From Candidatus Parcubacteria bacterium (GTDB lineage: Bacteria > Patescibacteriota > Microgenomatia > UBA12405): 64,000 nucleotides of DNA. The stretch's first letter is position 1; each line of letters begins with the position of its first letter. The notes under the pieces are model-generated. The model was not told the DNA's origin. It worked only from the letters and a program-made list of their open reading frames with translations, and made no database searches. The DNA lies in contig JAEZTF010000007.1 in the NCBI GenBank assembly GCA_023443725.1, positions 2,391 through 66,390 of the forward strand. The letters are read 5' to 3'. Both the position numbers and the translations under genes were made by a program. Shown piece by piece: positions 2,381 through 23,660 of the stretch.

Positions 2381-2797
2381 TTAATTAGTACACACAGCAT
2401 AGACACCTGGTGTGGGAGTTAAATTACAATTAATTTGAGACTCGTTTGAATTATTAGAACCACTTTCCAAAGGTACTGTTAATATAAATCCATCACCACT
2501 ATCTAATTGACTATAAGTATAGCCAATACTAGATATATTTGGTAAATAACTAGAACCTATAGCAGTATTTAAACAATCGAAGCAATTAGTTCCTGTTGGA
2601 TAAGATTGATTGTCGTTATAATACATTCTCAAGGCATTTTTAATCGAATTAAGATCTTGAACTTTTTTGGAATCATTGGCTTTTTCTCTAGTTCCTACAA
2701 AATTTACCATCAACAAAGTTGTTAATATTCCTATAATCGAAATCACCACTAACAATTCCACCAATGTAAATCCTTTATTTAATTTACTTTTTTTCAT
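2381..2797 (-). CDS. Type IV prepilin-type pseudopilin (GspG-like)
   Basis: KGFTLVELLVVISIIGIL leader, followed by NDSKKVQDLNSIKNALRMYYND. Confidence 0.75.
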   Translation of the reverse strand: MKKSKLNKGFTLVELLVVISIIGILTTLLMVNFVGTREKANDSKKVQDLNSIKNALRMYYNDNQSYPTGTNCFDCLNTAIGSSYLPNISSIGYTYSQLDSGDGFILTVPLESGSNNSNESQINCNLTPTPGVYAVCTN

Positions 2798-2808
2798 TTT
2801 TTATTTTA

Positions 2809-3231
2809 CTAATTACTAACAACTGCTGATATTTTGTTTTCATAGCAATATTTTTTACCATCACAATCAAAAGATTTATCAAAGCAATCAACATCCTTTT
2901 TATTTTCTAAATTAGTCAATAAAGCAAAAGTTTGTTTATCATATTGTTTATAACAATATTGATTATCAATATAATTTTCCTTAGGAACTTGTTTCATATA
3001 AATATAATCTCCATCTTTCCATTCTTTTCCCCATAAACCATTGATCAACTTTTCTTCAGGCAACTTTCCATAATCAGCATAGTATAATCTTATAACTTTT
3101 GATAATTCATGCAAACTTGATTTTCTTTCTACATCTCTTGATTTTTTTTCCGCCAAATCAAATTGGCTCCAAGTAATCCAACTCAAAACGAAAACTACTA
3201 ATACTACAATAAAAAATTCTACTTTCTTCAT
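2809..3231 (-). CDS. Pilin-domain paralog lacking the prepilin cleavage motif (hydrophobic N-terminus only)
   Basis: It has the shared post-helix motif SRDVERKSSLHELSKVIRLYYADYG that matches neighbouring pilins. The N-terminus MKKVEFFIVVLVVFVLSWITW has no G-F-T-L-x-E. Confidence 0.45.
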   Translation of the reverse strand: MKKVEFFIVVLVVFVLSWITWSQFDLAEKKSRDVERKSSLHELSKVIRLYYADYGKLPEEKLINGLWGKEWKDGDYIYMKQVPKENYIDNQYCYKQYDKQTFALLTNLENKKDVDCFDKSFDCDGKKYCYENKISAVVSN

Positions 3232-3309
3232 TAGTTAATGATAATACTTTTTTAACCTAATTACAGCCAGCACCACAATAATCTATCCTAAATTATTACA
3301 AACTTAATT

Positions 3310-3789
3310 TTATATATCTGTATTCCAAGAAATATTAGAGCTAGAAACTCCATAATTAACTTCATTAATATTATAACCATCAATTTCATAAGAAACATCG
3401 TGGTTATACCAACCAGAAGGAATAGATCCATCTTTTTTGTTTTCCAAATTAGTCAAAACTTTAAAATATTTCCCATTATCACTCACCCAAATATAGTAAG
3501 GATTACCATTAGGATCACATGGCCAGGGATTTAAGTATGAATTAAAAATAGAACTTTTACAATTTGTTTTTATATTCCAATTTCCAATATCAATTGGATA
3601 AACTCCTTTGTCATTAAAATATTCTTCAAAAGATTTTCTAATTGCATCCAAATCTCTTTTTCTTCGAGAGTCATTTGTTTTTCCAAGTAAACCAGCTGGA
3701 TTAATGATTCCTACTAAAATAACAATTAAAATCATCAAGATAGCCATCACTATCAACAATTCCATCAAAGTAAAACCTTTATTTTTCAT
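3310..3789 (-). CDS. Type IV prepilin-type pseudopilin
   Basis: NKGFTLMELLIVMAILMIL leader, followed by NDSRRKRDLDAIRKSFEEYFND. The start is placed at the internal ATG (MKNKGFTL) rather than the ORF-track start at 3828. Confidence 0.7.
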   Translation of the reverse strand: MKNKGFTLMELLIVMAILMILIVILVGIINPAGLLGKTNDSRRKRDLDAIRKSFEEYFNDKGVYPIDIGNWNIKTNCKSSIFNSYLNPWPCDPNGNPYYIWVSDNGKYFKVLTNLENKKDGSIPSGWYNHDVSYEIDGYNINEVNYGVSSSNISWNTDI

Positions 3790-3832
3790 AATTAATTTTA
3801 CCTTTTTTCTAAGATCTAACATCAACAATCTA

Positions 3833-4609
3833 TCATCTTATCAAATTAATAATTTGATCACCCCAAATCCAAGCTATTATTGTCCCAAAAATTAAAAATG
3901 GACCAAAAGCAATTTTACTTTTCTTGTTAATTTTTTTTAAAATCATACCAACTACTCCCACAAGTGCTCCGATTATAAAAGCTATATATATAGCCACCAA
4001 TATCTTAGGCCAACCAAGAAACAATCCCATAAAAACAGCTAACTTTACATCACCAAAACCCATTCCTTTTTTTTTAGTAATCAAATATAAAAACAAAAAA
4101 AAGCCACCAGAAATTATTGCTGAAATCAAATAGGGAATTATATTTGGTTCATCAAAAACAACTCCCAAAAAAGAAATAATTATAAGAGTTGCTACCGCAA
4201 AATCCGGCAAAATCATATATTTGAAATCAAATACAGCTAAAAAAACCAACAAAACAATTATTAAAAATCCTGATACTAATTGTAAGGGCGACTCTTGTGG
4301 TCGCCCAAAAAAATAATAAATCAAAAATAAAATTCCTGTCATTATTTCCACAATAGGGTAGAGTGTTGATAATTTTTTAAGACAACATCTTGATTTTCCT
4401 CCTTGTAATAACCAAGAAATTATCGGAACATTTTCATACCAAGATAATTGTTTTCCACAGAAATCACAGTGACTTCTATTGTTATTTTTTACTTTGAATT
4501 TATCTTTTTCCAATTTATATTTCCTAGCTACTCTATAAACTAACATGTTTACAAAACTTCCAAGACACAAACCCAATATAAAAATCATTGTTAATATAAA
4601 CAATTCCAT
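3833..4609 (-). CDS. pilD: Prepilin peptidase (A24 family, PilD/ComC)
   Basis: N-terminal zinc-binding cysteine motif CDFCGKQL...SRCC. It is a multi-TM protein with GFGDVKL, an aspartyl-protease-like motif. It lies between the pilin genes. Confidence 0.85.
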   Translation of the reverse strand: MELFILTMIFILGLCLGSFVNMLVYRVARKYKLEKDKFKVKNNNRSHCDFCGKQLSWYENVPIISWLLQGGKSRCCLKKLSTLYPIVEIMTGILFLIYYFFGRPQESPLQLVSGFLIIVLLVFLAVFDFKYMILPDFAVATLIIISFLGVVFDEPNIIPYLISAIISGGFFLFLYLITKKKGMGFGDVKLAVFMGLFLGWPKILVAIYIAFIIGALVGVVGMILKKINKKSKIAFGPFLIFGTIIAWIWGDQIINLIR

Positions 4610-7689: not shown

Positions 7690-9429
7690 TTAATATTGGG
7701 CCACTCTAATAACTTCATCAATAGTGGTCACTCCTTCTAATACCTTAACGTAACCATCTTGCTTCATTGTTAACATTCCTTCTTCCATAGCTTGTTTTTG
7801 TATATCCAAAGCAGCTGCTTTTTCAATAATTAATTTACTAATTTTTTCTGATATTGGCATTACCTCATATATAGCTATTCTTCCTAAATAACCAGTATTA
7901 TTACATTTTTCACAGCCTACAATTTTAGGAATAGTCATAGCCTTACCATCTTTTTTAAATTTATCTTCTAACAAATTATAAACAGGCCCTAAAGTTTTTT
8001 TCATATCATCCATTATTTGTGGCGTCATTTCCATTTCTCCAGCACAGTTTTTGCAAACTCTTCTCAAAACTCTCTGTCCAACCACACAATTTAATGAAGA
8101 CACTAATAAAAATGGTTCTGCTCCCATATCTAATAATCTTGGAGGGACTCCAGAAGCATCATTAGTATGTAAAGTTGAAAAAACTAAATGACCAGTCAAA
8201 GCCGCATTAATAGCCAAATCGGCCGTCTCAGTATCACGAATTTCTCCAACCATTATTACATTTGGATCTTGTCGTAAAAATGATCTTAATGCCGAAGCAA
8301 AAGTTAACCCTGCTTGAGTGTTAACTTGCACCTGGTTTACCCCTTTCATTTGATATTCTACTGGATCTTCAATTGTTACTACATTAACCTTTGTTGTTGC
8401 CACAATATCCAAAATAGAATATAAAGTAGTTGTCTTACCAGAACCAGTTGGTCCACAAACAATAATAATTCCATGTGGTCTTTGAATTGAATTCATTAGG
8501 TTCTTCAATGCTAATCCTCGTAAACCCAAGTCTGGCAATGTTGGTACTTTTTGTGATTTTTGAAGCAAACGCATTACCACTTTCTCTCCATAAGTAGTTG
8601 GTAAAGTAGAAACACGTAAATCCACATCACTCCCATCAACAGAAAAAAAGAAACGACCATCTTGAGGCACGCGCTTCTCATCAATTTTTAAGTTTGACAA
8701 AATTTTTATTCTAGAAACCACGGCATCATGGACATTTCTTGGAAGTAAATATTTTTCCTGTAAAATTCCATCAATTCTATATCTTACTCGAACATTTTCT
8801 TCTTGTGGTTCAACATGTACATCAGAAGCTCTAGACTTAACTGCATACTCCAAAATAGTTGATACAATTTTAGCCACTGGTGCTTCAATAGCAACTTCTT
8901 CTTGAACTCTCTTCATCTCCCGTTCTTCATCTTTTCTTTCATTCAATGCTTTGTTTACCTCAGAAGTAATTTTTTTCTCTCTAATATATTTTTCCCTAAC
9001 AAAGGCAGAAATTTGTTTTTCTGTCGACATCGATACATTTATCTTTAAATTAGTTCTTTTTTCTAAAAATTCTATTGTCTCTAAATCAAGTGGGTTAGCC
9101 ATGGTCACAAACAAAATTTTTTCTTTAGGATCAAAACGATAGGGGACTATATTATACTTTTGAGCCACACTTTCGGGTACTAAATTTAAAGCTTCTGGAG
9201 AAAAACCAATATTATCTAAATCCACAAAAGGAACTCTCAAAAAACTTGCTTTTGCTTTTATTAATTCATCTTCTGATACTAACTTTAATTCTTTTATTGC
9301 TTCTTCTTCTGTTTCACCAGTCTTAAGTTGTCGTAAGTTTATTTCTTTAGATTGATCAGAATTGATTAGTTTTAAACCTAACAAAGCTTCAGTTAAGTTC
9401 TTATATATTTTTGGGGCGGCATTATCCAT
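7690..9429 (-). CDS. pilB: Type IV pilus assembly ATPase PilB (GspE family)
   Basis: 579 aa with Walker A GPTGSGKTTT, a tetracysteine zinc motif (CKNC...CEKC) and an N-terminal GspII-like domain. Confidence 0.9.
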   Translation of the reverse strand: MDNAAPKIYKNLTEALLGLKLINSDQSKEINLRQLKTGETEEEAIKELKLVSEDELIKAKASFLRVPFVDLDNIGFSPEALNLVPESVAQKYNIVPYRFDPKEKILFVTMANPLDLETIEFLEKRTNLKINVSMSTEKQISAFVREKYIREKKITSEVNKALNERKDEEREMKRVQEEVAIEAPVAKIVSTILEYAVKSRASDVHVEPQEENVRVRYRIDGILQEKYLLPRNVHDAVVSRIKILSNLKIDEKRVPQDGRFFFSVDGSDVDLRVSTLPTTYGEKVVMRLLQKSQKVPTLPDLGLRGLALKNLMNSIQRPHGIIIVCGPTGSGKTTTLYSILDIVATTKVNVVTIEDPVEYQMKGVNQVQVNTQAGLTFASALRSFLRQDPNVIMVGEIRDTETADLAINAALTGHLVFSTLHTNDASGVPPRLLDMGAEPFLLVSSLNCVVGQRVLRRVCKNCAGEMEMTPQIMDDMKKTLGPVYNLLEDKFKKDGKAMTIPKIVGCEKCNNTGYLGRIAIYEVMPISEKISKLIIEKAAALDIQKQAMEEGMLTMKQDGYVKVLEGVTTIDEVIRVAQY

Positions 9430-9456
9430 AATTGTATATATAATAATAGTACCAAA

Positions 9457-10098
9457 ATGAAATTATTTCCGTCTACTATAATTGTTTCTCGATCAATTGA
9501 TCAATCTATTAATTACACTATTGAAACGTGCCAGTCATTAGGCCATAAATCCATAATAAATAATCCTGATCTTTTTTTGATTAACCAAGAAACAGGTTGG
9601 ACTATTGATCTTGTTCGATCATTAAAAAAATTTATTTCCCAAAAACCATTTTGCCACCAAAACAAAGTCGTTATAATATCTCAAGCCGACAATCTTAATA
9701 TAGAATCACAAAATGCTCTTTTAAAAACCCTTGAAGAACCAGGAGAGAATAACTATATTTTTTTAATTACTGCTAGACCATCAAAATTATTAAATACTAT
9801 AACATCACGATGTCATTTAATAAAAATTACTAATTTGGACAACAAAAAATCTTCAAAAGAGATTATTAAAATAACTGGAAATTTTCTTAAAGACACCTCA
9901 GGGTTAGAAGAACTTTATAAAAATAAGGACCAAATTCTACCTTTTTTAAAAGAACAATTAGCCTTATTACAACAAGACTTAATTAACAAACCAAGTACAA
10001 GAACTAGTCAAATTATTCAAAGAATTATTAAATCAATTAGTATGATTGAATCAAACGTCGACCCACGTTCAGCCTTAGATTTTGTTTTTTTGGCCTAA
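9457..10098 (+). CDS. holB: DNA polymerase III delta-prime subunit (short form)
   Basis: KTLEEPGENNYIFLITARPSKLLNTITSRCHL matches the delta-prime KTLEEP / SRC motifs. Confidence 0.7.
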   Translation: MKLFPSTIIVSRSIDQSINYTIETCQSLGHKSIINNPDLFLINQETGWTIDLVRSLKKFISQKPFCHQNKVVIISQADNLNIESQNALLKTLEEPGENNYIFLITARPSKLLNTITSRCHLIKITNLDNKKSSKEIIKITGNFLKDTSGLEELYKNKDQILPFLKEQLALLQQDLINKPSTRTSQIIQRIIKSISMIESNVDPRSALDFVFLA

Positions 10099-10156
10099 TT
10101 TATTTTCCGCATTTTCCCCTTAAAAAAAGACTAAAAAGTGTTATAATGACACTAGA

Positions 10157-11284
10157 ATGTTTTCTCCGTTATTTTCAATCAATAATAAAGTTTTAAAAAA
10201 TATTGCCATCATCGAAGGTGCTAAAGCAATTATCGATGAAGCTCCTTTAATACCTGCTTACGAAAAACAATTTCAACAAGATGCAGTTGTCAGAACGGTC
10301 CATTACGGTACTAGAATTGAAGGTAACGATTTAACTTTTCAAGAAGTTGCCAAACTTGTTGAAGGTCAAAAAATAACTGCTGGAGAAAGGGACATCCAAG
10401 AGGTTATCAACTATCGAAATGTTATGAGTTATTTAGAAGAACTTTGGTCTGTTTATGATGCTGGTCTTCCACTTCCAGAAGAAAAATCAATTGATAGTAG
10501 CGATAAAAGTCGACCTTTCTTTTATAGTGAAACCATAATTAAAAAAATTCATTCTTTCACCACCAATAAAATTATTCCAGATAGTGAAGTTGGCAAATAT
10601 CGTCATCAACAAGTAGTTTTAAAAAACACTAAAACCGGCGAGATTGCCCATCGACCTCCAGCCGCAATTGAAGTTCCATATCTTATCGCTGATTTTATTG
10701 ATTGGATTAATTATCCTGAATCTCGCGAAATTCACCCAGCCATTCGTGCTGCTATCTCACAATATATTTTAGTTGCCATTCATCCTTTTATTGAAGGTAA
10801 TGGTCGTGTTAGTCGAGCTTTTGCCATGTTACCTCTTTATTCAGAAGGTTATGATATTCGTCGTTTATTTTCTCTAGAAGAATATTTTGATCGAAATGCC
10901 GAAGATTACTACAATACCCTTCAATTAACTCACCAAAAATCATCTGATATTTTCAAACGAGATATGACCGAATGGATCGAATATTTTACTCAAGCATTAG
11001 CTATTGAACTTTCTCGTGTTAAAGAAAAAGTTCAAAGTCTTTCTCGAGATATTAAACTCAAACAGAAACTTGGTGGTAAACAAGTTCATTTAAGCGAACG
11101 ACAAATTAAACTAGTCGAATATATGCAACAATTTGGTGGATTAAGAATGCCTGATGCTCAACAACTTTTACCCATGGTTAGTGATGACACTATCTGGCGA
11201 GATCTCAAAAAATTAGTTGACGATAAAGTTATCGAAAAACGTGGTTCCACCAAAGGTGCCTACTATTGTCTTGTAAATATCTAA
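10157..11284 (+). CDS. Fic family protein (Fido domain, putative AMPylator) with a C-terminal winged-helix
   Basis: Canonical Fic motif HPFIEGNGRVSRAF. N-terminal TRIEGN resembles the inhibitory (S/T)xxxE(G/N) helix. The C-terminal ~70 aa are wHTH-like. Confidence 0.85.
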   Translation: MFSPLFSINNKVLKNIAIIEGAKAIIDEAPLIPAYEKQFQQDAVVRTVHYGTRIEGNDLTFQEVAKLVEGQKITAGERDIQEVINYRNVMSYLEELWSVYDAGLPLPEEKSIDSSDKSRPFFYSETIIKKIHSFTTNKIIPDSEVGKYRHQQVVLKNTKTGEIAHRPPAAIEVPYLIADFIDWINYPESREIHPAIRAAISQYILVAIHPFIEGNGRVSRAFAMLPLYSEGYDIRRLFSLEEYFDRNAEDYYNTLQLTHQKSSDIFKRDMTEWIEYFTQALAIELSRVKEKVQSLSRDIKLKQKLGGKQVHLSERQIKLVEYMQQFGGLRMPDAQQLLPMVSDDTIWRDLKKLVDDKVIEKRGSTKGAYYCLVNI

Positions 11285-16292: not shown

Positions 16293-17354
16293 ATGACCTT
16301 TATCAAAAAACATCTAAAAAAAATAATTATAATTGTTATTGTTCTGTTTATTTCTGGTTTTAGTATTTATAAAGCCAACGCTAGTACCAAAACTTCAGAA
16401 ATTCCTAAATTTAACGAAAAAAAAGAAACTGTTGTTTCACCTAAAAGAGAAACCATAAAAGAAGAAATTACTTTAACAGGTTCGGTTGATGCCTCAACCA
16501 AAGCTAACCTTCAATTTCAAACTAGTGGTCAACTTGCTTGGGTCGGAGTTAAAGTAGGGGATAAGGTCAAAAAATATCAAGCTATTGCCAGTCTTAATAA
16601 AGAAGTCTTAAAAAAACAACTCCAGGCCGATTTTAATACTTATCGATCTGCTTTAGCTACTTTTGATGATACTCAAGACGACTATAAAACTGAAAAAGAC
16701 AATCTTACTTTAACCGATGACATGAAACGAATTTTAGTTCGTTCTCAAAACACTTTAGATAATTCCGTTATTAACTACGAACTTCAAGATTTGGCTATCA
16801 AGTATGCTACTTTAACCAGTCCTATTAATGGCATTGTTACCGATGTAGAACAGCCAAATAGTGGTGTCAATATTACTCCTGCTTCGGCTACTTTTTCTAT
16901 TATTGATCCAACCAGTATTTATTTCAAAGCTCAAATTGATCAGGAAGATGTTACTAGAGTAAAAGTTGGTGATAAAACTACAATTACACTTGATAGTTTT
17001 CCAGATAAAACTTTTGAATCTGAAGTCACTTATATTTCATTTACTCCAGTTTCTGGTCAAACTTCAACCGTTTACGAAATTAAATTTAAATTAGTTGGCA
17101 ACGATAATCAAGATATTTCTTATCGTTTAGGTATGGATGGTGATGCTGTTATTTCTCTTCGTCAAGTTGAAAATGCTCTTACCCTTCCCGCAGATGCTGT
17201 TCGTCAAGATAAAGACGAAACATATGTTCTTATTAAAACCGCCGACAACCAAATTTTAACTAAAAAGACAGTAAAAACTGGGATTGAAACTGATGATACT
17301 ATAGAAATTTTAGAAGGACTTTCCGAAAATGACCAAGTCGTCATCTCAAAATAA
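16293..17354 (+). CDS. Periplasmic adaptor subunit of a tripartite ABC exporter (HlyD/MacA family)
   Basis: N-terminal TM anchor, with coiled-coil and beta-barrel/lipoyl-like segments. It is immediately upstream of an ABC ATPase and an FtsX permease. Confidence 0.75.
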   Translation: MTFIKKHLKKIIIIVIVLFISGFSIYKANASTKTSEIPKFNEKKETVVSPKRETIKEEITLTGSVDASTKANLQFQTSGQLAWVGVKVGDKVKKYQAIASLNKEVLKKQLQADFNTYRSALATFDDTQDDYKTEKDNLTLTDDMKRILVRSQNTLDNSVINYELQDLAIKYATLTSPINGIVTDVEQPNSGVNITPASATFSIIDPTSIYFKAQIDQEDVTRVKVGDKTTITLDSFPDKTFESEVTYISFTPVSGQTSTVYEIKFKLVGNDNQDISYRLGMDGDAVISLRQVENALTLPADAVRQDKDETYVLIKTADNQILTKKTVKTGIETDDTIEILEGLSENDQVVISK

Positions 17355-18042
17355 TTCTAAAGTAATTTTAGAATTAAAAAATATCACCAAAACTTACATT
17401 ACGGGTACTAATCAATTTAATGCTCTAGACAACGTTAGTTTAAAAATATATCAAGGTGAATTTGTTTCTATTACTGGACCATCAGGGTCCGGCAAATCAA
17501 CTTTAATGCATATTGTAGGCCTACTCGATAATCCTACCTCTGGTGAAGTTTTATTAGAAGGTCGTGATATTTCTCAACTTAAAGAACATCAGTTAGCTCA
17601 AATTAGAAATATAACGTTGGGTTTTGTATTTCAACAATTCAACCTTTTGCCAAAAACATCATCTTTAGAAAATGTCTTATTACCATTACTTTATTCTGAT
17701 GTTCCCAAAAAAGATCGTCAAAAAATTGGCACGGATCTTCTAATCAAAGTTGGTTTAGGAGACAAATTTAGCAACACTCCTGCACAACTTTCTGGAGGAC
17801 AACAACAGCGAGTTGCTATTGCCAGAGCTTTAGTTAATAATCCAAAAATTATTTTAGCCGATGAACCTACTGGTAATTTAGACAGTAAATCAGGAGAAGA
17901 AATAATGAAATTTTTTCATCAATTAAATAAAGAAGAGGGTAGAACTATTGTTTTTGTCACTCATGATATGGATTTGGCCAAACAAGCCAATCGAACTATT
18001 ATTATAAAAGACGGCAAAATATCGGAGGAAAAACATGCTTAA
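17329..18042 (+). CDS. ABC transporter ATP-binding protein (MacB/LolD-type)
   Basis: Walker [10 protein letters not shown], signature [15 protein letters not shown] and Walker [12 protein letters not shown]. Confidence 0.9.
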
Positions 18043-19261
18043 ACCCAGCTTTAATGATTTACTAAAATCTAGCTTTCGATCAATATTGAAAAATAAGAGT
18101 CGAACTATTTTAACTTCTTTAGGAATTATTATTGGAGTAACTTCTGTTATTCTTTTAACTTCGATTGGTAATGGTCTTAAAAAATATATCACCGATCAAT
18201 TTGATTCTCTTGGTGCCAATTCAATTTATGTCTCTCCTGGAAAAGTTTTTAACGACAATGGCGGCTTTGCCCAAGGTGGTATGGCATCTATGATGACTAC
18301 TAGTTTCACCCAAAAGGATTTTTCCTATCTAGAAAGAAAAATAAAAGATGTTGAAATTATCCCTGCTAGTGCCGTTTTCGCCAATATAAGTTCTTCTTTT
18401 AGTACTCAAAAAAATATTGAGATTGACGGGTCAACTGAAAATTTTGGAATTATCAACAATGTTGAGCCGTCTGCTGGTAATGGTCGTTGGTTTACTACAG
18501 AAGAAAATGATAAAAAAACACCAGTAATAGTTTTAGGTTATCAACTAGCTCAAGACTTATTTCCAAAGTCAAGCGCAGTTGGTAAAAAAGTTATTGTTAA
18601 AGGAAAAACTTTAAAAGTTATTGGTGTTAGTGATAAAAAAGGATCTTCTTTTGGTGGCCCAAGTTTTGACAAGCAAGCATATATTCCAATTGAAGTTGCT
18701 TATGATTTATCAGGCAAAACTGATATTCAAAGCATAATTGTAAAAGTTAAAAATAAAGACTCAATTGAATCTACAAAAAAAGAAATTACAAATGTAATGC
18801 TTGAGCGTTATGACGATAAAGATGCTTTTTCTGTTTTCGACAGCTCACAACTTCTTAGTTCAATTAATTCCATTATCAGCATGCTCACTATTGGTCTTAC
18901 CGGAATTGCGGCTATATCTTTAGTTGTCGGTGGAATTGGAATTATGAATATTATGTTAGTGTCAGTCACTGAAAGAACTAGGGAAATTGGTCTTCGAAAA
19001 GCCATTGGCGCTTACCCTCGAGCTATTTTAATTCAATTTTTAATTGAGGCTGTTATTTTATCTTGTATTGGTGGGGCAACTGGGGTCATTTTAGGATACC
19101 TAGGCACCTTAACCATAAAGCCATTCTTTCCAGCTCAAGTTACTATTTCTTCTGTTATTTTAGCTTTTGGAGTTTCTTCAATGGTTGGAATAATTTTTGG
19201 AGTTGCTCCAGCTCGTAAAGCCTCTAAATTATCTCCAATTGAAGCTTTAAGGTACGAATAG
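18035..19261 (+). CDS. ABC transporter permease, FtsX/MacB family
   Basis: N-terminal TM, a large periplasmic domain, then three C-terminal TMs, the typical FtsX-like topology. Confidence 0.85.
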   Translation: MLKPSFNDLLKSSFRSILKNKSRTILTSLGIIIGVTSVILLTSIGNGLKKYITDQFDSLGANSIYVSPGKVFNDNGGFAQGGMASMMTTSFTQKDFSYLERKIKDVEIIPASAVFANISSSFSTQKNIEIDGSTENFGIINNVEPSAGNGRWFTTEENDKKTPVIVLGYQLAQDLFPKSSAVGKKVIVKGKTLKVIGVSDKKGSSFGGPSFDKQAYIPIEVAYDLSGKTDIQSIIVKVKNKDSIESTKKEITNVMLERYDDKDAFSVFDSSQLLSSINSIISMLTIGLTGIAAISLVVGGIGIMNIMLVSVTERTREIGLRKAIGAYPRAILIQFLIEAVILSCIGGATGVILGYLGTLTIKPFFPAQVTISSVILAFGVSSMVGIIFGVAPARKASKLSPIEALRYE

Positions 19262-19278
19262 TCTGATATTATTAATTA

Positions 19279-19842
19279 GTGAAATATAAATTTCTTAATT
19301 ATCTGGTTCCAGCGGTCATTGTATCAATAATAATTTCATTGTTTTGGGTCATTTCTAATGTTAATAATTTACAAATCATATATTTATTTCTCGGACTAAT
19401 TATTGGCATATTCGTTCTTGATGTTGATTACTTAATCTTTTGGTTTTTTATCAAACCAAACAACGAAGAAAGTCGTTTAATTAAATTAGCTTTTGAAAAT
19501 AAACAATTTAAATCTATTATTAAAATAATCCAAAACTCACACCAAAATCACTATAATCTTATTTTTCATCATTATTTTTTTCAGGTTATTTTAACCTTAT
19601 TTTCTTTATTTATTTTTACATCTACCACTAATACTTTTGCTTCAGCACTAACATTTGGTCTTAATCTACATCTTATTATCGACGAAATAATCGGATATAA
19701 AACTGATCCAAAAATAGTTCAAAAATGGCTTTTTGCTCGTGAACCAAAACAACTTCCTGTTGTTTTTTTGAAAAAATATATCACTGTTTTTGTAGTTTTT
19801 AATATTCTATTTACTTATATTTTAATTCAGTCCAAAATATAA
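19279..19842 (+). CDS. Hypothetical polytopic membrane protein
   Basis: Four predicted TM helices. It lies downstream of the ABC permease and upstream of the HEPN-like ORF. Confidence 0.4.
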   Translation: MKYKFLNYLVPAVIVSIIISLFWVISNVNNLQIIYLFLGLIIGIFVLDVDYLIFWFFIKPNNEESRLIKLAFENKQFKSIIKIIQNSHQNHYNLIFHHYFFQVILTLFSLFIFTSTTNTFASALTFGLNLHLIIDEIIGYKTDPKIVQKWLFAREPKQLPVVFLKKYITVFVVFNILFTYILIQSKI

Positions 19843-19845
19843 AAT

Positions 19846-20340
19846 ATGGTTTTTTCTTTTCCAGAAATTTTTAAACAAGCTGATCAATATTTATCTTCTC
19901 ATCAACAAGAGCTCTTAAAAGATACTCAAACTATATTTAATAGATTAGAATTGCGCGATGGCATAAGTGATTATTCTTTTTTAGTTTCTCCAGTAGCTAA
20001 GTTATATGAAGGTTTTTTAAAAGATTTCTTTCTAAAAATAGGTATTATTTCAGAAGTAGAATACGAAAGTGATCGTTTCCGAGTTGGTAAAACATTAAAC
20101 CCTTCACTTCGATATAAACGATTTTCTGTATTTCAAAAATTATCTGATTCTCACGAAAAAGGAGAAGAGCTTGCTGAAACTCTTTGGGACGCTTGGAAAT
20201 TTGGACGAAATGAAATCTTTCATTATTTTCCTGGTAATTACAAAAATTTGACCAAACAAGAAGCCGAAGATAGGATTGCTCTTTTATTAAAAGCTATTAT
20301 TCAAGCTGGCGAGTTTCTCAGTGAAAATAAAACTATTTAA
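19846..20340 (+). CDS. HEPN-like domain protein (putative RNase toxin-like)
   Basis: C-terminal motif GRNEIFHYF fits the HEPN R-x4-H (RN-x3-H) signature, and the protein is helical. This is a single-motif inference. Confidence 0.35.
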   Translation: MVFSFPEIFKQADQYLSSHQQELLKDTQTIFNRLELRDGISDYSFLVSPVAKLYEGFLKDFFLKIGIISEVEYESDRFRVGKTLNPSLRYKRFSVFQKLSDSHEKGEELAETLWDAWKFGRNEIFHYFPGNYKNLTKQEAEDRIALLLKAIIQAGEFLSENKTI

Positions 20341-21259
20341 ATTCTTTTATTACATCGGTACAAGAATTTAATTTCAACTCTTTTTTATATCCACACAAAA
20401 AATCCTTATCACTGCACCCACCACAAATATTTTTTTGATCACAATTAGAACAACCATTTAAAGAATCAACAAAACTTTTAATTAATTTTTCTGGTTTGTC
20501 AGATATTTTTCCAATCGAGTTTGATGATTCACAACAACCATAAATTAATCCATTAGATTGTAAAGAAATTTGGCTACAACCAAAGTTTTTAGGAGGTATA
20601 GTACGATAATTTCGTTTAATATTCAAAATCTGTTCTTTTGTTAAAGATTCCATATTATTTTCTATTGCCAATAAATGATTTTCTGTAAACGGTTTTGATT
20701 TTTGAGTTATAAAATTTATTACTATTTTTTGTCCTGTTAATTTAAATAAATAGTTATTAAAATTTTTCACAAAATCATAAGAATCTGGTGTAACCAAAAA
20801 CATTATTTCCAGATGAAAACCCAATTTTATTCCATGTTTTAAAAACTTTATTGTTCTATTAAAATTTCCCTTACCTCGATTTTTATCATGAATTTTTTCT
20901 GGACCATCTAAAGAAACTAACAATTGACAATTATTTGGGTTCTTAATTTTATCCAAATTATCAATAGTTCCATTGGTAATTATTGAAACAAAAATATTCT
21001 GATCAGATAAACAGTTTATTAAACCTATAAAATCTGGCATTATAAACACTTCACCACCACAAAAAGTAATCGATTTTAAACTTTTATCCAAAGAATTAAG
21101 GTAGGTATTGTATCTTTTTATAAAATCAAGTATTTGTTCATTTGTTAAGATACTTTCAATCTTTTTGGTGTAACAATACTTACAGTTTAAATTACAAATT
21201 TCTAGTGGTGAAATATAAATATTTTCTATAGAAGTAACCATTTTAATCTTATTGATCAA
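20333..21259 (-). CDS. Radical SAM enzyme with a C-terminal SPASM/twitch auxiliary Fe-S domain
   Basis: CNLNCKYC (CxxxCxxC) at residues 22-29. The C-terminus carries about 9 Cys, including CSNCDQKNICGGC and FLCG...C, which is SPASM-like. Confidence 0.8.
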   Translation of the reverse strand: MINKIKMVTSIENIYISPLEICNLNCKYCYTKKIESILTNEQILDFIKRYNTYLNSLDKSLKSITFCGGEVFIMPDFIGLINCLSDQNIFVSIITNGTIDNLDKIKNPNNCQLLVSLDGPEKIHDKNRGKGNFNRTIKFLKHGIKLGFHLEIMFLVTPDSYDFVKNFNNYLFKLTGQKIVINFITQKSKPFTENHLLAIENNMESLTKEQILNIKRNYRTIPPKNFGCSQISLQSNGLIYGCCESSNSIGKISDKPEKLIKSFVDSLNGCSNCDQKNICGGCSDKDFLCGYKKELKLNSCTDVIKEFK

Positions 21260-21289
21260 TAAAGCTACAGATTATACAATATATACAAT

Positions 21290-22309
21290 ATGTTTTCCCA
21301 ATTTAAAGGCCAATTTATAAAAGAATTTGTTGTTCAATATATTCGTGAGTTCTTTATTAGTAAAAATTTTCATGAAATTGAAACTCCAACTCTTCTGCCA
21401 AAAATACCAATAGAACCAAATTTATATCCATTAAAAACTGTCTGGCAAGAAAGAAAAATTGATTTTTATTTACCAACTTCACCAGAAAGTTCACTTAAGA
21501 AAGTTATTACTAAAGGAGTAGGGAATTGTTTTACTATTTCCAAAGTTTTCAGAGATCTGGAAAATATTGGGCCCACCCACAATTTAGAATTCTCTATGCT
21601 TGAATGGTATGAAATGAATAAGACCCATCACGATATTGCCAAGACTACTCAAGAACTAATTTTAAATTGTTATCATTCTGTTCTCAAAAAACAAAACAAA
21701 AAACTGACATCTATTCTTAATTATCAAAATCAAAATATTGATTTATCATCTCCTTGGTATGAGTTCACCTTATCTCAACTTTTTCGGGAATACGCTAATA
21801 TCGATTTATCAAAAAATCTAGACACTAATAGTATTCTTAAAACAGCAAAGAATAAAGGCTATAATATTGACGGTATTAATACATGGGAACCACTTTATAC
21901 TCAAATTTTTATTAATGAAGTTGAATCAAAACTACCATTAGATAAGCCAGTAATAATTTTCGACTACCCAACACAACTTTCACCTCTCTGTAAGAAATGT
22001 CCAGATTCTCCTGGATTTAGTCAAAGATTTGAGTTTTATATTGGAGGTATGGAAATAGGTAACGCTTATACTGAACTTACTGACAGTCAAGAGTTAGAAA
22101 GAAATTTTATTGAAGAAACAAAAAATCGAAAAGAAAATAATCTTCCAGTTCATCCATATGACAAAGAATTTGTTGATGCAGTTGGGAAAATGCCTGAGTG
22201 TGCCGGCATTGGACTTGGTGTCGATCGACTGGCCATGCTTTTCAATAATTCTCAAAATATTGAAGATGTTCTTTATTTTTCAACATCTCAACTCATAAAG
22301 TCCGAATAA
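21290..22309 (+). CDS. epmA: EF-P--(R)-beta-lysine ligase EpmA (PoxA/GenX; class II LysRS catalytic-core paralog)
   Basis: Strong pattern matches to E. coli EpmA: TSPE, FRDLE, HNLEFSMLEWY, RFEFYIGGMEIGNAYTELTD and GIGLGVDRLAML. At 339 aa it lacks an anticodon-binding domain. Confidence 0.8.
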   Translation: MFSQFKGQFIKEFVVQYIREFFISKNFHEIETPTLLPKIPIEPNLYPLKTVWQERKIDFYLPTSPESSLKKVITKGVGNCFTISKVFRDLENIGPTHNLEFSMLEWYEMNKTHHDIAKTTQELILNCYHSVLKKQNKKLTSILNYQNQNIDLSSPWYEFTLSQLFREYANIDLSKNLDTNSILKTAKNKGYNIDGINTWEPLYTQIFINEVESKLPLDKPVIIFDYPTQLSPLCKKCPDSPGFSQRFEFYIGGMEIGNAYTELTDSQELERNFIEETKNRKENNLPVHPYDKEFVDAVGKMPECAGIGLGVDRLAMLFNNSQNIEDVLYFSTSQLIKSE

Positions 22310-22348
22310 ACCATTTGACATGAATTTCAAATCGGGTAATATATAGTC

Positions 22349-22546
22349 ATGTCTAAAAAAGTAATTCTCGATCAAAACAAATGTATTGGATGTAATACAT
22401 GTCCACTTTTAAACCCTGATGTTTTTGAAATGGACACCACTATTTATAAAGCTAAAGTTAAAGCTCAACCAGCTGAAATTGATCAAGCCACTCAAACAGC
22501 TATTGATTCATGTCCAGTTGGAGCTATATCAATACTAGAAGAATAA
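22349..22546 (+). CDS. Small ferredoxin (single [4Fe-4S]/[3Fe-4S] type)
   Basis: CIGCNTCP ... CPVG in 65 aa. Confidence 0.75.
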   Translation: MSKKVILDQNKCIGCNTCPLLNPDVFEMDTTIYKAKVKAQPAEIDQATQTAIDSCPVGAISILEE

Positions 22547-22565
22547 TTATTAATTAATCAAACAA

Positions 22566-23603
22566 ATGAAAAAAATTGTTAAAAAGAAAATTAAACTTCC
22601 AGAAGTTAAATTACCTCAAATTGATACTTCAAAAAGTGTCCAGATTCCATTAGTTGGAGTTATCGTTTTTTGTTTACTATTAGCTGCTTCTTCATTTTTT
22701 GCAGGTATTTCTTGGATAAAAATAAAGGGCAGTACCACTAGCGCTACTAATGCAAAGAACGTATTTGCAGCAGTTAAAAATAGTAAACCAGAATTTAATT
22801 TCTTTGTTATGAGTTTTTGTCCATATGGTAATCAAATTGAAACAGTCATAAAACCAATTGCTGATTTATTAAAAAATAATGCTGATATCCATCCTCGCTA
22901 TATTTTTGAAAAAATAGCAGATTTAGAAGGTTATTGTAAACAGACCAGTGGTGATGTTAATCAATGTGCCGCTTATGTCAAATCTGGCTATTTTGCTACC
23001 GAATCAGAATGTCAAAAAACCGTTAATGAATACAGTAAATCGTGTCTTGATGAAAAGAATTATCTAAAAATAGGTAATGTTTTTTATTCATCACTTCACG
23101 GCAGGATAGAAGCTAATCAAAATGTTAGAGAAATTTGTGCTTTTAACATGAATGAAGATAAAACCAATTGGTGGAATTTTGTCTCCAATGTTAATACTAA
23201 TTGTACTTCCGAAAATGCCGATACCTGTTGGGAAGAGCAAGCCAAAAAAGCTGGTTTCGACACTAATAAAATTACCGAATGTTTTAATACCCAAGCTAGT
23301 GATTTAATTGAAAAAGAAATTGCCTTGACCACTCAATACAAAGTAACCGGCTCTCCAACACTTATTATCAATGGTGTCAATTTTCCACCTGAAACCGCCT
23401 ATACTGAATCTGGCGATGGTACTTTAAAAGTTGGTGATAAAGTTATTAAACAAGCCGATTTCAGGACTTCTAACGCTGTAAAAGAAGCTGTTTGTGCTTC
23501 ATTCAAAAAAGCACCTAAAGAATGTAAAACTGAGCTAAAGGAAACTACAGCTAATGCTAGTGCAAACACTGCCACTGCTAATGCAGGTGGTAGTTGCAAC
23601 TAA
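22566..23603 (+). CDS. Membrane-anchored, Cys-rich secreted protein with a thioredoxin-like (DsbA-like) segment and a degenerate CPYG site
   Basis: Signal anchor, then FFVMSFCPYGNQ in a DsbA-like context where the second Cys is replaced by Gly. About 14 Cys in total and an Ala/Thr/Asn-rich C-terminus. Confidence 0.45.
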   Translation: MKKIVKKKIKLPEVKLPQIDTSKSVQIPLVGVIVFCLLLAASSFFAGISWIKIKGSTTSATNAKNVFAAVKNSKPEFNFFVMSFCPYGNQIETVIKPIADLLKNNADIHPRYIFEKIADLEGYCKQTSGDVNQCAAYVKSGYFATESECQKTVNEYSKSCLDEKNYLKIGNVFYSSLHGRIEANQNVREICAFNMNEDKTNWWNFVSNVNTNCTSENADTCWEEQAKKAGFDTNKITECFNTQASDLIEKEIALTTQYKVTGSPTLIINGVNFPPETAYTESGDGTLKVGDKVIKQADFRTSNAVKEAVCASFKKAPKECKTELKETTANASANTATANAGGSCN

Positions 23604-23624: not shown

Positions 23625-23660
23625 CCCCTCTCCGATAGTCGTCGGAGAGGGTTTTTGTTG
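23625..23660 (+). terminator. Rho-independent terminator
   Basis: CCCCTCTCCGA-TAGTCG-TCGGAGAGGGG followed by TTTTTGTTG. Confidence 0.6.

Follow-up and report, generated by a model that had tools for sequence, protein, structure and literature searches.

Gene layout of the locus

The stretch of DNA analyzed here (the window; 64,000 nucleotides of contig JAEZTF010000007.1 from a Candidatus Parcubacteria genome, with a G + C content of approximately 30%) carries a gene for a radical S-adenosylmethionine (SAM) enzyme that is divergent from a gene for an EpmA-like lysyl ligase. Elongation factor P (EF-P)/eIF5A is universal, and its activity depends on unusual modifications of loop residues; in Escherichia coli and Salmonella, Lys34 of EF-P is beta-lysylated by the EpmA/EpmB/(EpmC) system. 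The gene pair consists of the following features, numbered by position in the window:

20333..21259, minus strand: radical SAM enzyme with a twitch/SPASM-like C-terminal domain, 308 aa from a TTG start (PF04055, E = 3.7e-16)
21260..21289, no strand: spacer of 30 bp between the divergent radical SAM and EpmA-like genes, read from the sequence
21290..22309, plus strand: EpmA-like class II lysyl-ligase, catalytic domain only, 339 aa (TIGR00462 genX; PF00152, 2.3e-48)

An earlier reading of this stretch (the original prediction) had placed the two genes here together with genes for a ferredoxin and a thioredoxin (Trx)-like protein, and all four open reading frames (ORFs) were recovered exactly where it had put them. 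The 30-bp gap that it had described between the divergent genes also holds with the TTG start, and an alternative ATG start at 21241, at which a 70%-identical homolog (P0004) begins, widens the spacer to 48 bp. A promoter scan returned 28 matches against 22 expected from shuffled sequence, which is no excess.

Conservation of the radical SAM/ligase pair

Loci with the radical SAM gene were gathered by exact-protein look-ups, a scan of one genome per GTDB species and, indirectly, a ligase-seeded metagenome scan. This gave 92 distinct loci from Shapirobacteria, Gottesmanbacteria, Woesebacteria, and other Microgenomates, with at most 10 kb covered on either side. All database relatives of the pair were metagenome-assembled genomes (MAGs) of the candidate phyla radiation (CPR)/Microgenomates (Candidatus Shapirobacteria, Gottesmanbacteria, Woesebacteria, and "Patescibacteria group").

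An EpmA-like gene was found beside the radical SAM gene in 88 of the 92 loci. The two genes were approximately 300 nt or less apart in 84 loci and 1.1–3 kb apart in four, where glycosyltransferase-type genes were inserted between them. The co-directional order radical SAM gene to ligase gene was present in 83 loci, frequently with a 4-nt overlap, and the divergent layout was present in five, namely, L087–L089 (the sublineage of the window), L015, and L025. The pair was kept across at least eight unrelated flank contexts, which include the following:

Most Shapirobacteria loci: hpf-rpmG
L173 and L176: MgtE/Nramp
L177: hydrolase and glycosyltransferase
L174: DsbA-like protein and BipA
L077: PIG-L and efp
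The window: MacAB and gyrBA

Because the other neighbors change between lineages or recur only in L087–L089, the radical SAM enzyme and the EpmA-like ligase alone form a conserved unit, and the remaining neighbors in the window represent lineage synteny.

The EpmA-like partner was missing from four of the 92 loci, three of which stop at a contig edge. The fourth, L053, is the sole assessable locus without the partner; in the approximately 1.9 kb (8249-10178) on the 3′ side of its complete radical SAM gene, neither an EpmA-like gene nor any ORF reaching 90 aa was found. An apparent fusion of the two proteins in L046 (a 668-aa ORF) proved to be an artifact of an N-masked stretch read as X.

The EpmA-like ligase and its gate residue

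The window ligase aligned to residues 172–488 of lysyl-tRNA synthetase (LysRS) only and thus has no anticodon-binding domain. Its core is that of a class II LysRS, in which motif 2, motif 3, and the residues that bind lysine are intact. Each of S76, E78, R100, E102, H108, F112, E116, Y118, E244, N247, E251, G296, G300, and R303 (E. coli numbering) was kept in 72 or more of the 74 ligases linked to the radical SAM gene. The Trp of the EpmA-type "LEWY" motif (W117) was present in 71 of the 74, and the two bacterial LysRS sequences aligned for comparison have Leu at this site ("LELY"). The best family match of the window ligase was TIGR00462 genX at 269.7 bits, under the equivalog cut-off of 286.9. 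Ligases that share its glycine at the gate position described below scored 189–270 bits (for example, 260.6 for L077, 243 for L174, 231 for L001, and 189 for L069), and CPR EpmAs with alanine at this position scored above the cut-off (316 for L090 and 332 for L092).

Residue A298 is the backbone-selectivity gate of E. coli EpmA, where Ala supports (R)-beta-lysine and the A298G substitution changes the preference of the enzyme to (S)-alpha-lysine (bioRxiv 10.64898/2026.07.07.736966). Gly308 of the window ligase (codon 22211–22213), within "GIGLGVDRL," aligned with A298; the Ala that confers the (R)-beta-lysine preference is therefore not present. The gate was Gly in 69 of the 74 radical SAM-linked ligases and Ala in 76 of the 77 members of the other EpmA clade. 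At 80% conservation or more, the only alignment columns that separated the two clades were 298 (Gly versus Ala) and 245 (Ile versus Leu), the latter being located beside the active-site Glu. In a neighbor-joining tree, which carries no branch support values, the Gly-gate proteins formed one clade of 75 leaves that takes in all radical SAM-linked ligases except those of L015 and L025, and E. coli EpmA fell into the Ala-gate clade.

Metagenomes provided an independent sample of 80 EpmA-type loci. None of its approximately 68 Ala-gate genes was accompanied by this radical SAM gene; approximately 40 had efp adjacent, and nine had KamA/EpmB in the flank. Among five truncated Gly-gate genes, those of L108 and L162 had the radical SAM gene directly upstream, that of L111 formed an operon with efp, and two lay at a contig edge. 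Two further Gly-gate loci (L155 and L159) were full-length, high-GC LysRS genes and were excluded. No metagenome-derived locus of the Ala-gate clade carried the radical SAM gene, and only L015 and L025 in that clade were linked to it. The Ala or Gly gate tracks the absence or presence of the radical SAM enzyme, respectively. Because the Ala of canonical EpmA is replaced here by the Gly found in LysRS, (R)-beta-lysine is probably not the substrate of the ligase; L-alpha-lysine or another isomer appears more likely.

In L015 (6829-8891) and L025 (6826-8888), from the MAGs of two species (one Candidatus Magasanikbacteria and one "Patescibacteria group"), the radical SAM gene is divergent from a canonical-clade Ala-gate EpmA (281.9 bits to genX). 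The ligase in these two loci looks like a secondary replacement.

The radical SAM enzyme

The window protein matched PF04055 with 60.2 bits against a cut-off of 29.5, which places it in the radical SAM superfamily. Its cluster motif is C22-x3-C26-x2-C29, and nine Cys lie beyond residue 200, in the C-terminal third; the original prediction had described this motif and had placed approximately nine Cys in the C-terminal half. The three motif Cys were invariant in 83 homologs, as were C67, C228, C242, C243, C282, and C289. The C-terminal pattern, C228-x13-C242C243...C270-x2-C273-x5-C279-x2-C282-x6-C289-x10-C300, is a near match to the SPASM signature CX9-15GX4C...CX2CX5CX3C...C, which could hold one (twitch) or two (SPASM) auxiliary clusters. 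C270, C273, C279, and C300, which we take by analogy with the anaerobic sulfatase-maturating enzyme anSME to be ligands of a second auxiliary cluster, were present in only 48 of the 83 homologs. In approximately 42% of the family, the remaining Cys would thus suffice for a single auxiliary cluster, as in the twitch pattern. Because the second set is kept in only part of the homologs, the family (245–390 aa) seems to span SPASM-like long forms, including the window protein, and twitch-like short forms of 245–300 aa. Both forms were paired with the ligase.

The closest solved structures, among them SkfB, SuiB, and anSME, are of the twitch/SPASM type, and most of them act on proteins or peptides; KamA/EpmB were far. 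The label "SPASM-type" of the original prediction is only partly right: the structural neighbors fit it, but the SPASM hidden Markov models stayed under threshold (TIGR04085 gave 15.7 bits against a cut-off of 27 for the C-terminal 101 aa, and PF13186 gave no match), and a large part of the family shows the twitch pattern. Its statement that the enzyme is not KamA-like agreed with our analysis, in which neither TIGR00238 nor TIGR03821, a pyridoxal phosphate (PLP)-binding C-terminal region, nor a KamA-like fold was found. A match to a known family would have reduced the novelty, but below the superfamily level the protein matched no curated family of NCBIfam or Pfam, and NCBIfam release 20 (June 2026) contained no model for its family. 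The best sub-threshold NCBIfam matches included sactipeptide and ranthipeptide maturases, and all maturase models were far under their cut-offs. No anSME model was among the 25 listed of 65 NCBIfam matches, and no sulfatase gene was present in the Pfam-annotated neighborhoods of the radical SAM loci; the JGI name "sulfatase maturation enzyme AslB" for relatives of the protein is seemingly a generic label.

The family is compact, with 39 of 1.84 billion cluster representatives at E ≤ 1e-30 and a sharp fall in score after the core members. A second tier of radical SAM proteins of approximately 280–300 aa (P0374–P0411) scored 115–157 bits on the family profile, compared with approximately 80 bits for generic radical SAM/SPASM proteins. 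Many homologs also carried a variable low-complexity insert between the Cys aligned with C273 and C279 (for example, P0019, P0031, P0036, P0047, and P0054; alignment A1, columns ~353–425; loci L006, L010, L011, L031, L039, L042, L045, and L050). A motif such as "F(L/F)SAQSSE(R/Q)SEGASTAK" recurred in these inserts, and an in-frame mobile insertion is one possibility.

Genomic links between the pair and EF-P

The order radical SAM gene, Gly-gate ligase gene, and efp formed an operon in L077 (JBGSIU010000030.1) and L172 (Logan SRR22387764_722). L077 was syntenic with L090 (GCA_040961665.1), with identities of 80% for efp, 57% for a methyltransferase, 58% for PAP2, and 74% for Lon. The position before efp was occupied by the radical SAM gene and the Gly-gate ligase gene in L077 and by an Ala-gate epmA alone in L090, with 36% identity between the ligases. 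The acceptor loop of EF-P, "FVNPGKGSAFVRA," was unchanged between the two loci. We read this arrangement as a probable in situ exchange of one EF-P-modifying unit for another. The PGKG loop was present in all 120 CPR-type EF-P homologs of the L077 protein among the matches listed.

The 8-kb contig L111, which carries no radical SAM gene, contained an operon of efp and a Gly-gate epmA-like gene (2691-4342). The EpmA-like protein is deep branching, its gene overlaps the end of efp, and the EF-P loop reads "RAMGKGSAF" instead of PGKG.

The gene order hpf-rpmG-radical SAM-epmA of most Shapirobacteria loci is a translation-related context. The rpmG gene, which encodes ribosomal protein L33 (59 aa, CxxC...CxxC), was located directly upstream of the radical SAM gene on the same strand in approximately 70 of 83 loci. 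The carriers lay among L001–L076 and L079 (for example, L005 5822-6001 and L004 5761-5940). In front of rpmG, hpf (S30AE) was the usual neighbor, and a gene for a GDSL-like exported protein or for a small membrane protein was frequent there; the window contains none of these genes.

A KamA-family gene beside the pair

When E. coli EpmB and a KamA-like protein of Gottesmanbacteria were used as queries, no match was obtained in the window or, within the flanks of at most 10 kb, in any radical SAM locus except L174/L175. This absence is weak evidence because epmB is often unlinked to epmA, as in the metagenome sample, where only nine of approximately 68 Ala-gate loci had it nearby. The exception was Candidatus Gottesmanbacteria RBG_13_45_10, in which a KamA-family gene adjoins the pair convergently, the sole case among the 92 loci:

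L174 7040-8221 and L175 3085-4266, minus strand: KamA-family protein, 393 aa (TIGR03822, TIGR00238, EpmB model)

This protein contains the CxxxCxxC motif and scored 182 bits with TIGR03822, 157 with TIGR00238, and 154 with the EpmB model, below every NCBIfam cut-off. Its best matches were AblA-type enzymes. Aminomutases of the AblA type produce (S)-beta-lysine. A lysine aminomutase can therefore coexist with this radical SAM enzyme, and this argues against a simple replacement of EpmB by the latter.

Proposed function of the pair and alternative explanations

Taken together, we lean toward the view that the radical SAM enzyme and the Gly-gate EpmA-like ligase act as a two-enzyme module that modifies the loop lysine (PGKG) of EF-P and is widespread in Microgenomates. 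The original prediction had offered a non-orthologous route for EF-P modification as one of two alternatives. The conserved pair and the efp operons of L077 and L172 speak for such a route, but its plain form, a non-orthologous EpmB, is probably not correct in view of the Gly gate and the KamA-like gene of Gottesmanbacteria.

Several observations count against an EF-P module. The efp gene was absent from the 64-kb window and adjoined only two of the 92 radical SAM loci. The Gly-gate ligases scored below the curated cut-off for EpmA, although genX was still the top family in every case, and the gate was Ala in four radical SAM-linked ligases (L008, L012, L015, and L025). The position of rpmG upstream of the pair makes L33 another candidate target. 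Finally, the KamA-family gene beside the pair in Gottesmanbacteria means that a beta-lysine route may coexist, and the suggestion of alpha-lysine drawn from the gate may not be transferable to all members.

We infer the following scheme for the acceptor, the amino acid, and the radical step. By homology and conservation of its catalytic residues, the ligase would, like EpmA, adenylate a lysine-type amino acid and attach it to the epsilon-amine of the loop lysine in EF-P. The radical SAM enzyme would cleave SAM at the CX3CX2C cluster, and the resulting 5′-deoxyadenosyl radical would take a hydrogen from an unactivated carbon. The universally conserved auxiliary [4Fe-4S] cluster would participate, and a second cluster would be expected only in long members such as the window protein. 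As a committed guess, the substrate of the radical SAM enzyme would be the EF-P-bound lysyl-lysine side chain, and the outcome could be a dehydrogenation, epimerization, or cyclization, that is, an anaerobic tailoring step with a role comparable to that of EpmC or DOHH; alternatively, the enzyme could prepare the free amino acid. We put forward tailoring of the bound side chain only tentatively; it is suggested because the nearest structures mostly act on proteins or peptides, no PLP domain is present, and a KamA-like gene can coexist with the pair. Similarly, it is possible, but by no means assured, that in Microgenomates the Gly-gate ligase attaches alpha-lysine or an unusual isomer and the twitch/SPASM enzyme then remodels the adduct, which would be a chemically new EF-P modification.

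The radical SAM enzyme could instead act before ligation, as a non-orthologous substitute for EpmB, and supply the Gly-gate ligase with a non-canonical amino acid made from free lysine or a different metabolite. The flanks of 91 of the 92 loci and the window contained no KamA/EpmB homolog, the change of the ligase gate implies a different amino-acid substrate, and the exchange at the efp locus between L077 and L090 would fit this scheme. A precedent exists in PylB, a PLP-free radical SAM lysine mutase, and PylC, an ATP-dependent ligase that joins a lysine-derived unit to the epsilon-amine of lysine, and the small twitch enzymes BtrN and MoaA, and also BlsE, work on small molecules. However, the predominance of protein and peptide modifiers among the nearest structures and the loose linkage of epmB to epmA, which devalues its absence from the flanks, weaken this explanation, and the Gottesmanbacteria gene shows that the enzyme is no simple stand-in for EpmB. 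We therefore consider action before ligation unlikely.

It is more doubtful still that the pair targets another translation-related protein, either L33, a 59-aa protein with four Cys, or the ligase itself, which would then be matured by the radical SAM enzyme. The rpmG gene lies 0–120 nt upstream of the radical SAM gene or overlaps it, a layout that resembles that of a precursor and its maturase, and the scores of the Gly-gate ligases under the EpmA equivalog threshold would be consistent with a different target. Nevertheless, the pair persists with no rpmG nearby in the window, L015, L025, L058, and L077–L085, as well as in L172–L179, where no L33 gene was called. In L077 and L172, efp and not rpmG neighbors the pair, and the hpf-rpmG adjacency is limited to one order-level lineage with wider shared synteny.

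Inherited synteny between genes of unrelated function would be another account of the adjacency, and some synteny is expected given that most loci come from one class (Microgenomatia). This account is very improbable, since the pair survives while all other neighbors change and survives inversion from the co-directional to the divergent layout, start/stop overlaps of 4 nt are frequent, and a particular substitution in the active site of the ligase goes together with the presence of the radical SAM enzyme.

Comparison with known systems

The pair resembles the EpmA/EpmB system in that its ligase is a truncated class II LysRS paralog with the conserved residues and "LEWY," the EF-P loop is of the Lys type, efp stands in the same operon in two loci, and a radical SAM partner is present. 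Unlike in that system, the partner is a twitch/SPASM-type enzyme of 245–390 aa and not a PLP-dependent aminomutase of the KamA type, and the gate is Gly instead of Ala298 in ligases that fall under the equivalog cut-off, which the Ala-gate CPR EpmAs exceed. The two genes are nearly always adjacent here, whereas epmA and epmB of E. coli are not.

The radical SAM enzyme shares with anSME, SkfB, SuiB, BtrN, and EpeE/YydG a radical SAM core followed by a Cys-rich, putative auxiliary-cluster domain at the C-terminus (CX13CC...CX2CX5CX2C...C here), and, as in anSME, the window protein has no recognition element (RRE) of the kind associated with ribosomally synthesized and post-translationally modified peptides (RiPPs). 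It differs from these enzymes in that no curated family was matched, its partner is an aminoacyl-tRNA synthetase-like ligase and not a precursor peptide or a sulfatase, and the four Cys predicted to hold the second cluster are missing from approximately 42% of its family. In diphthamide synthesis, a translation factor is modified by Dph2, an enzyme of the radical SAM type. Dph2 and PylB/PylC are functional analogies to the pair, and their targets differ.

A review of January 2026 listed four EF-P strategies, namely, beta-lysylation, rhamnosylation, 5-aminopentanolylation, and unmodified or extended-loop (EfpL) types, and left most phyla without an assigned strategy (PMC12856214). Full-text literature searches returned no paper connecting EpmA or EF-P with Patescibacteria, Microgenomates, or SPASM enzymes. 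The pair is best read as a putative, undescribed form of EF-P modification of the EpmA type, in which the specificity gate of the ligase is altered and a radical SAM enzyme is a new obligate partner. If this enzyme indeed remodels the EF-P-bound adduct, it would be the first of the radical SAM enzymes known to use EF-P directly as a substrate, and the pair would represent a fifth strategy of EF-P activation. The pair also offers a concrete two-gene candidate pathway for many uncultivated bacteria with reduced genomes, a natural experiment on the alpha/beta gate of EpmA, and a compact new radical SAM family with a guessable substrate. Gly-gate ligases and a lysyl-tailoring radical SAM enzyme could serve protein ligation and genetic-code expansion, in work such as that of bioRxiv 10.64898/2026.07.07.736966.

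Neighboring genes in the window

The pair is surrounded in the window by the following features:

16293-19261: MacAB/HlyD-type genes (Pfam calls on the syntenic loci L087 and L088)
19279-20340, plus strand: two ORFs, for a membrane protein of 187 aa (orf187) and a protein of 164 aa (orf164), with no Pfam or NCBIfam match
22349..22546, plus strand: single-cluster ferredoxin, 65 aa (Fer4_13, 9e-15)
22566..23603, plus strand: Trx-like membrane-anchored protein, 345 aa (weak VSR_TRX and DSBA matches)
23626-23651: strong terminator-like hairpin downstream of the Trx-like gene

The presence of MacAB/HlyD-type genes upstream, of a ferredoxin gene after the epmA-like gene, and of a Cys-rich Trx-like protein of 345 aa was thus correctly predicted. 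From these genes, the original prediction had derived its other alternative, a RiPP or protein-crosslinking cassette in which the radical SAM enzyme and the ferredoxin modify the Trx-like protein or a small peptide for export by MacAB/HlyD. The generic architecture of a radical SAM core with a Cys-rich C-terminus and the sactipeptide and ranthipeptide maturases among the best sub-threshold matches would suit such a cassette, and, because the terminator-like hairpin follows the Trx-like gene, epmA, the ferredoxin gene, and the Trx-like gene may be co-transcribed. However, the ferredoxin, the Trx-like protein, orf164, orf187, and SpoU had no homolog in L001–L085, and MacAB was not among the neighbors in these loci. 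For the ferredoxin, tblastn at 1e-5 gave no match there, and a query of 65 aa may overlook weak homologs. All of these genes recurred only in L087–L089, which share the whole gene order of the window from the DNA ligase gene to gyrA.

The original prediction had allowed for a small peptide gene near the pair, but a small-ORF scan of 21230-22600 found only unconserved ORFs within larger genes, and there was no conserved small ORF between or beside the two genes, with the caveat that rpmG, itself a short gene for a Cys-containing protein, stands upstream in approximately 70 loci. The radical SAM and ligase genes usually abut or overlap and therefore leave no space for a peptide gene between them. 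The radical SAM enzyme has no N-terminal RRE/PqqD-like domain because its motif begins at residue 22. The RiPP/exporter reading is hence largely refuted by the comparative data and is hardly credible. The Trx-like protein and MacAB are unrelated neighbors of the pair, and the ferredoxin may donate electrons to the radical SAM enzyme in the lineage of the window.

The DsbA-like neighbor of the pair in L174 was considered as a relative of the Trx-like protein, and no real similarity was found. The Trx-like protein has an N-terminal hydrophobic anchor, approximately 14 Cys, and the sequence "SFCPYGNQ," in which CPYG takes the place of CxxC; its best Pfam match was the eukaryote-named VSR_TRX (2e-8). 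The 164-aa ORF and the radical SAM gene are convergent, and the ORF runs 8 nt into the 3′ end of that gene.

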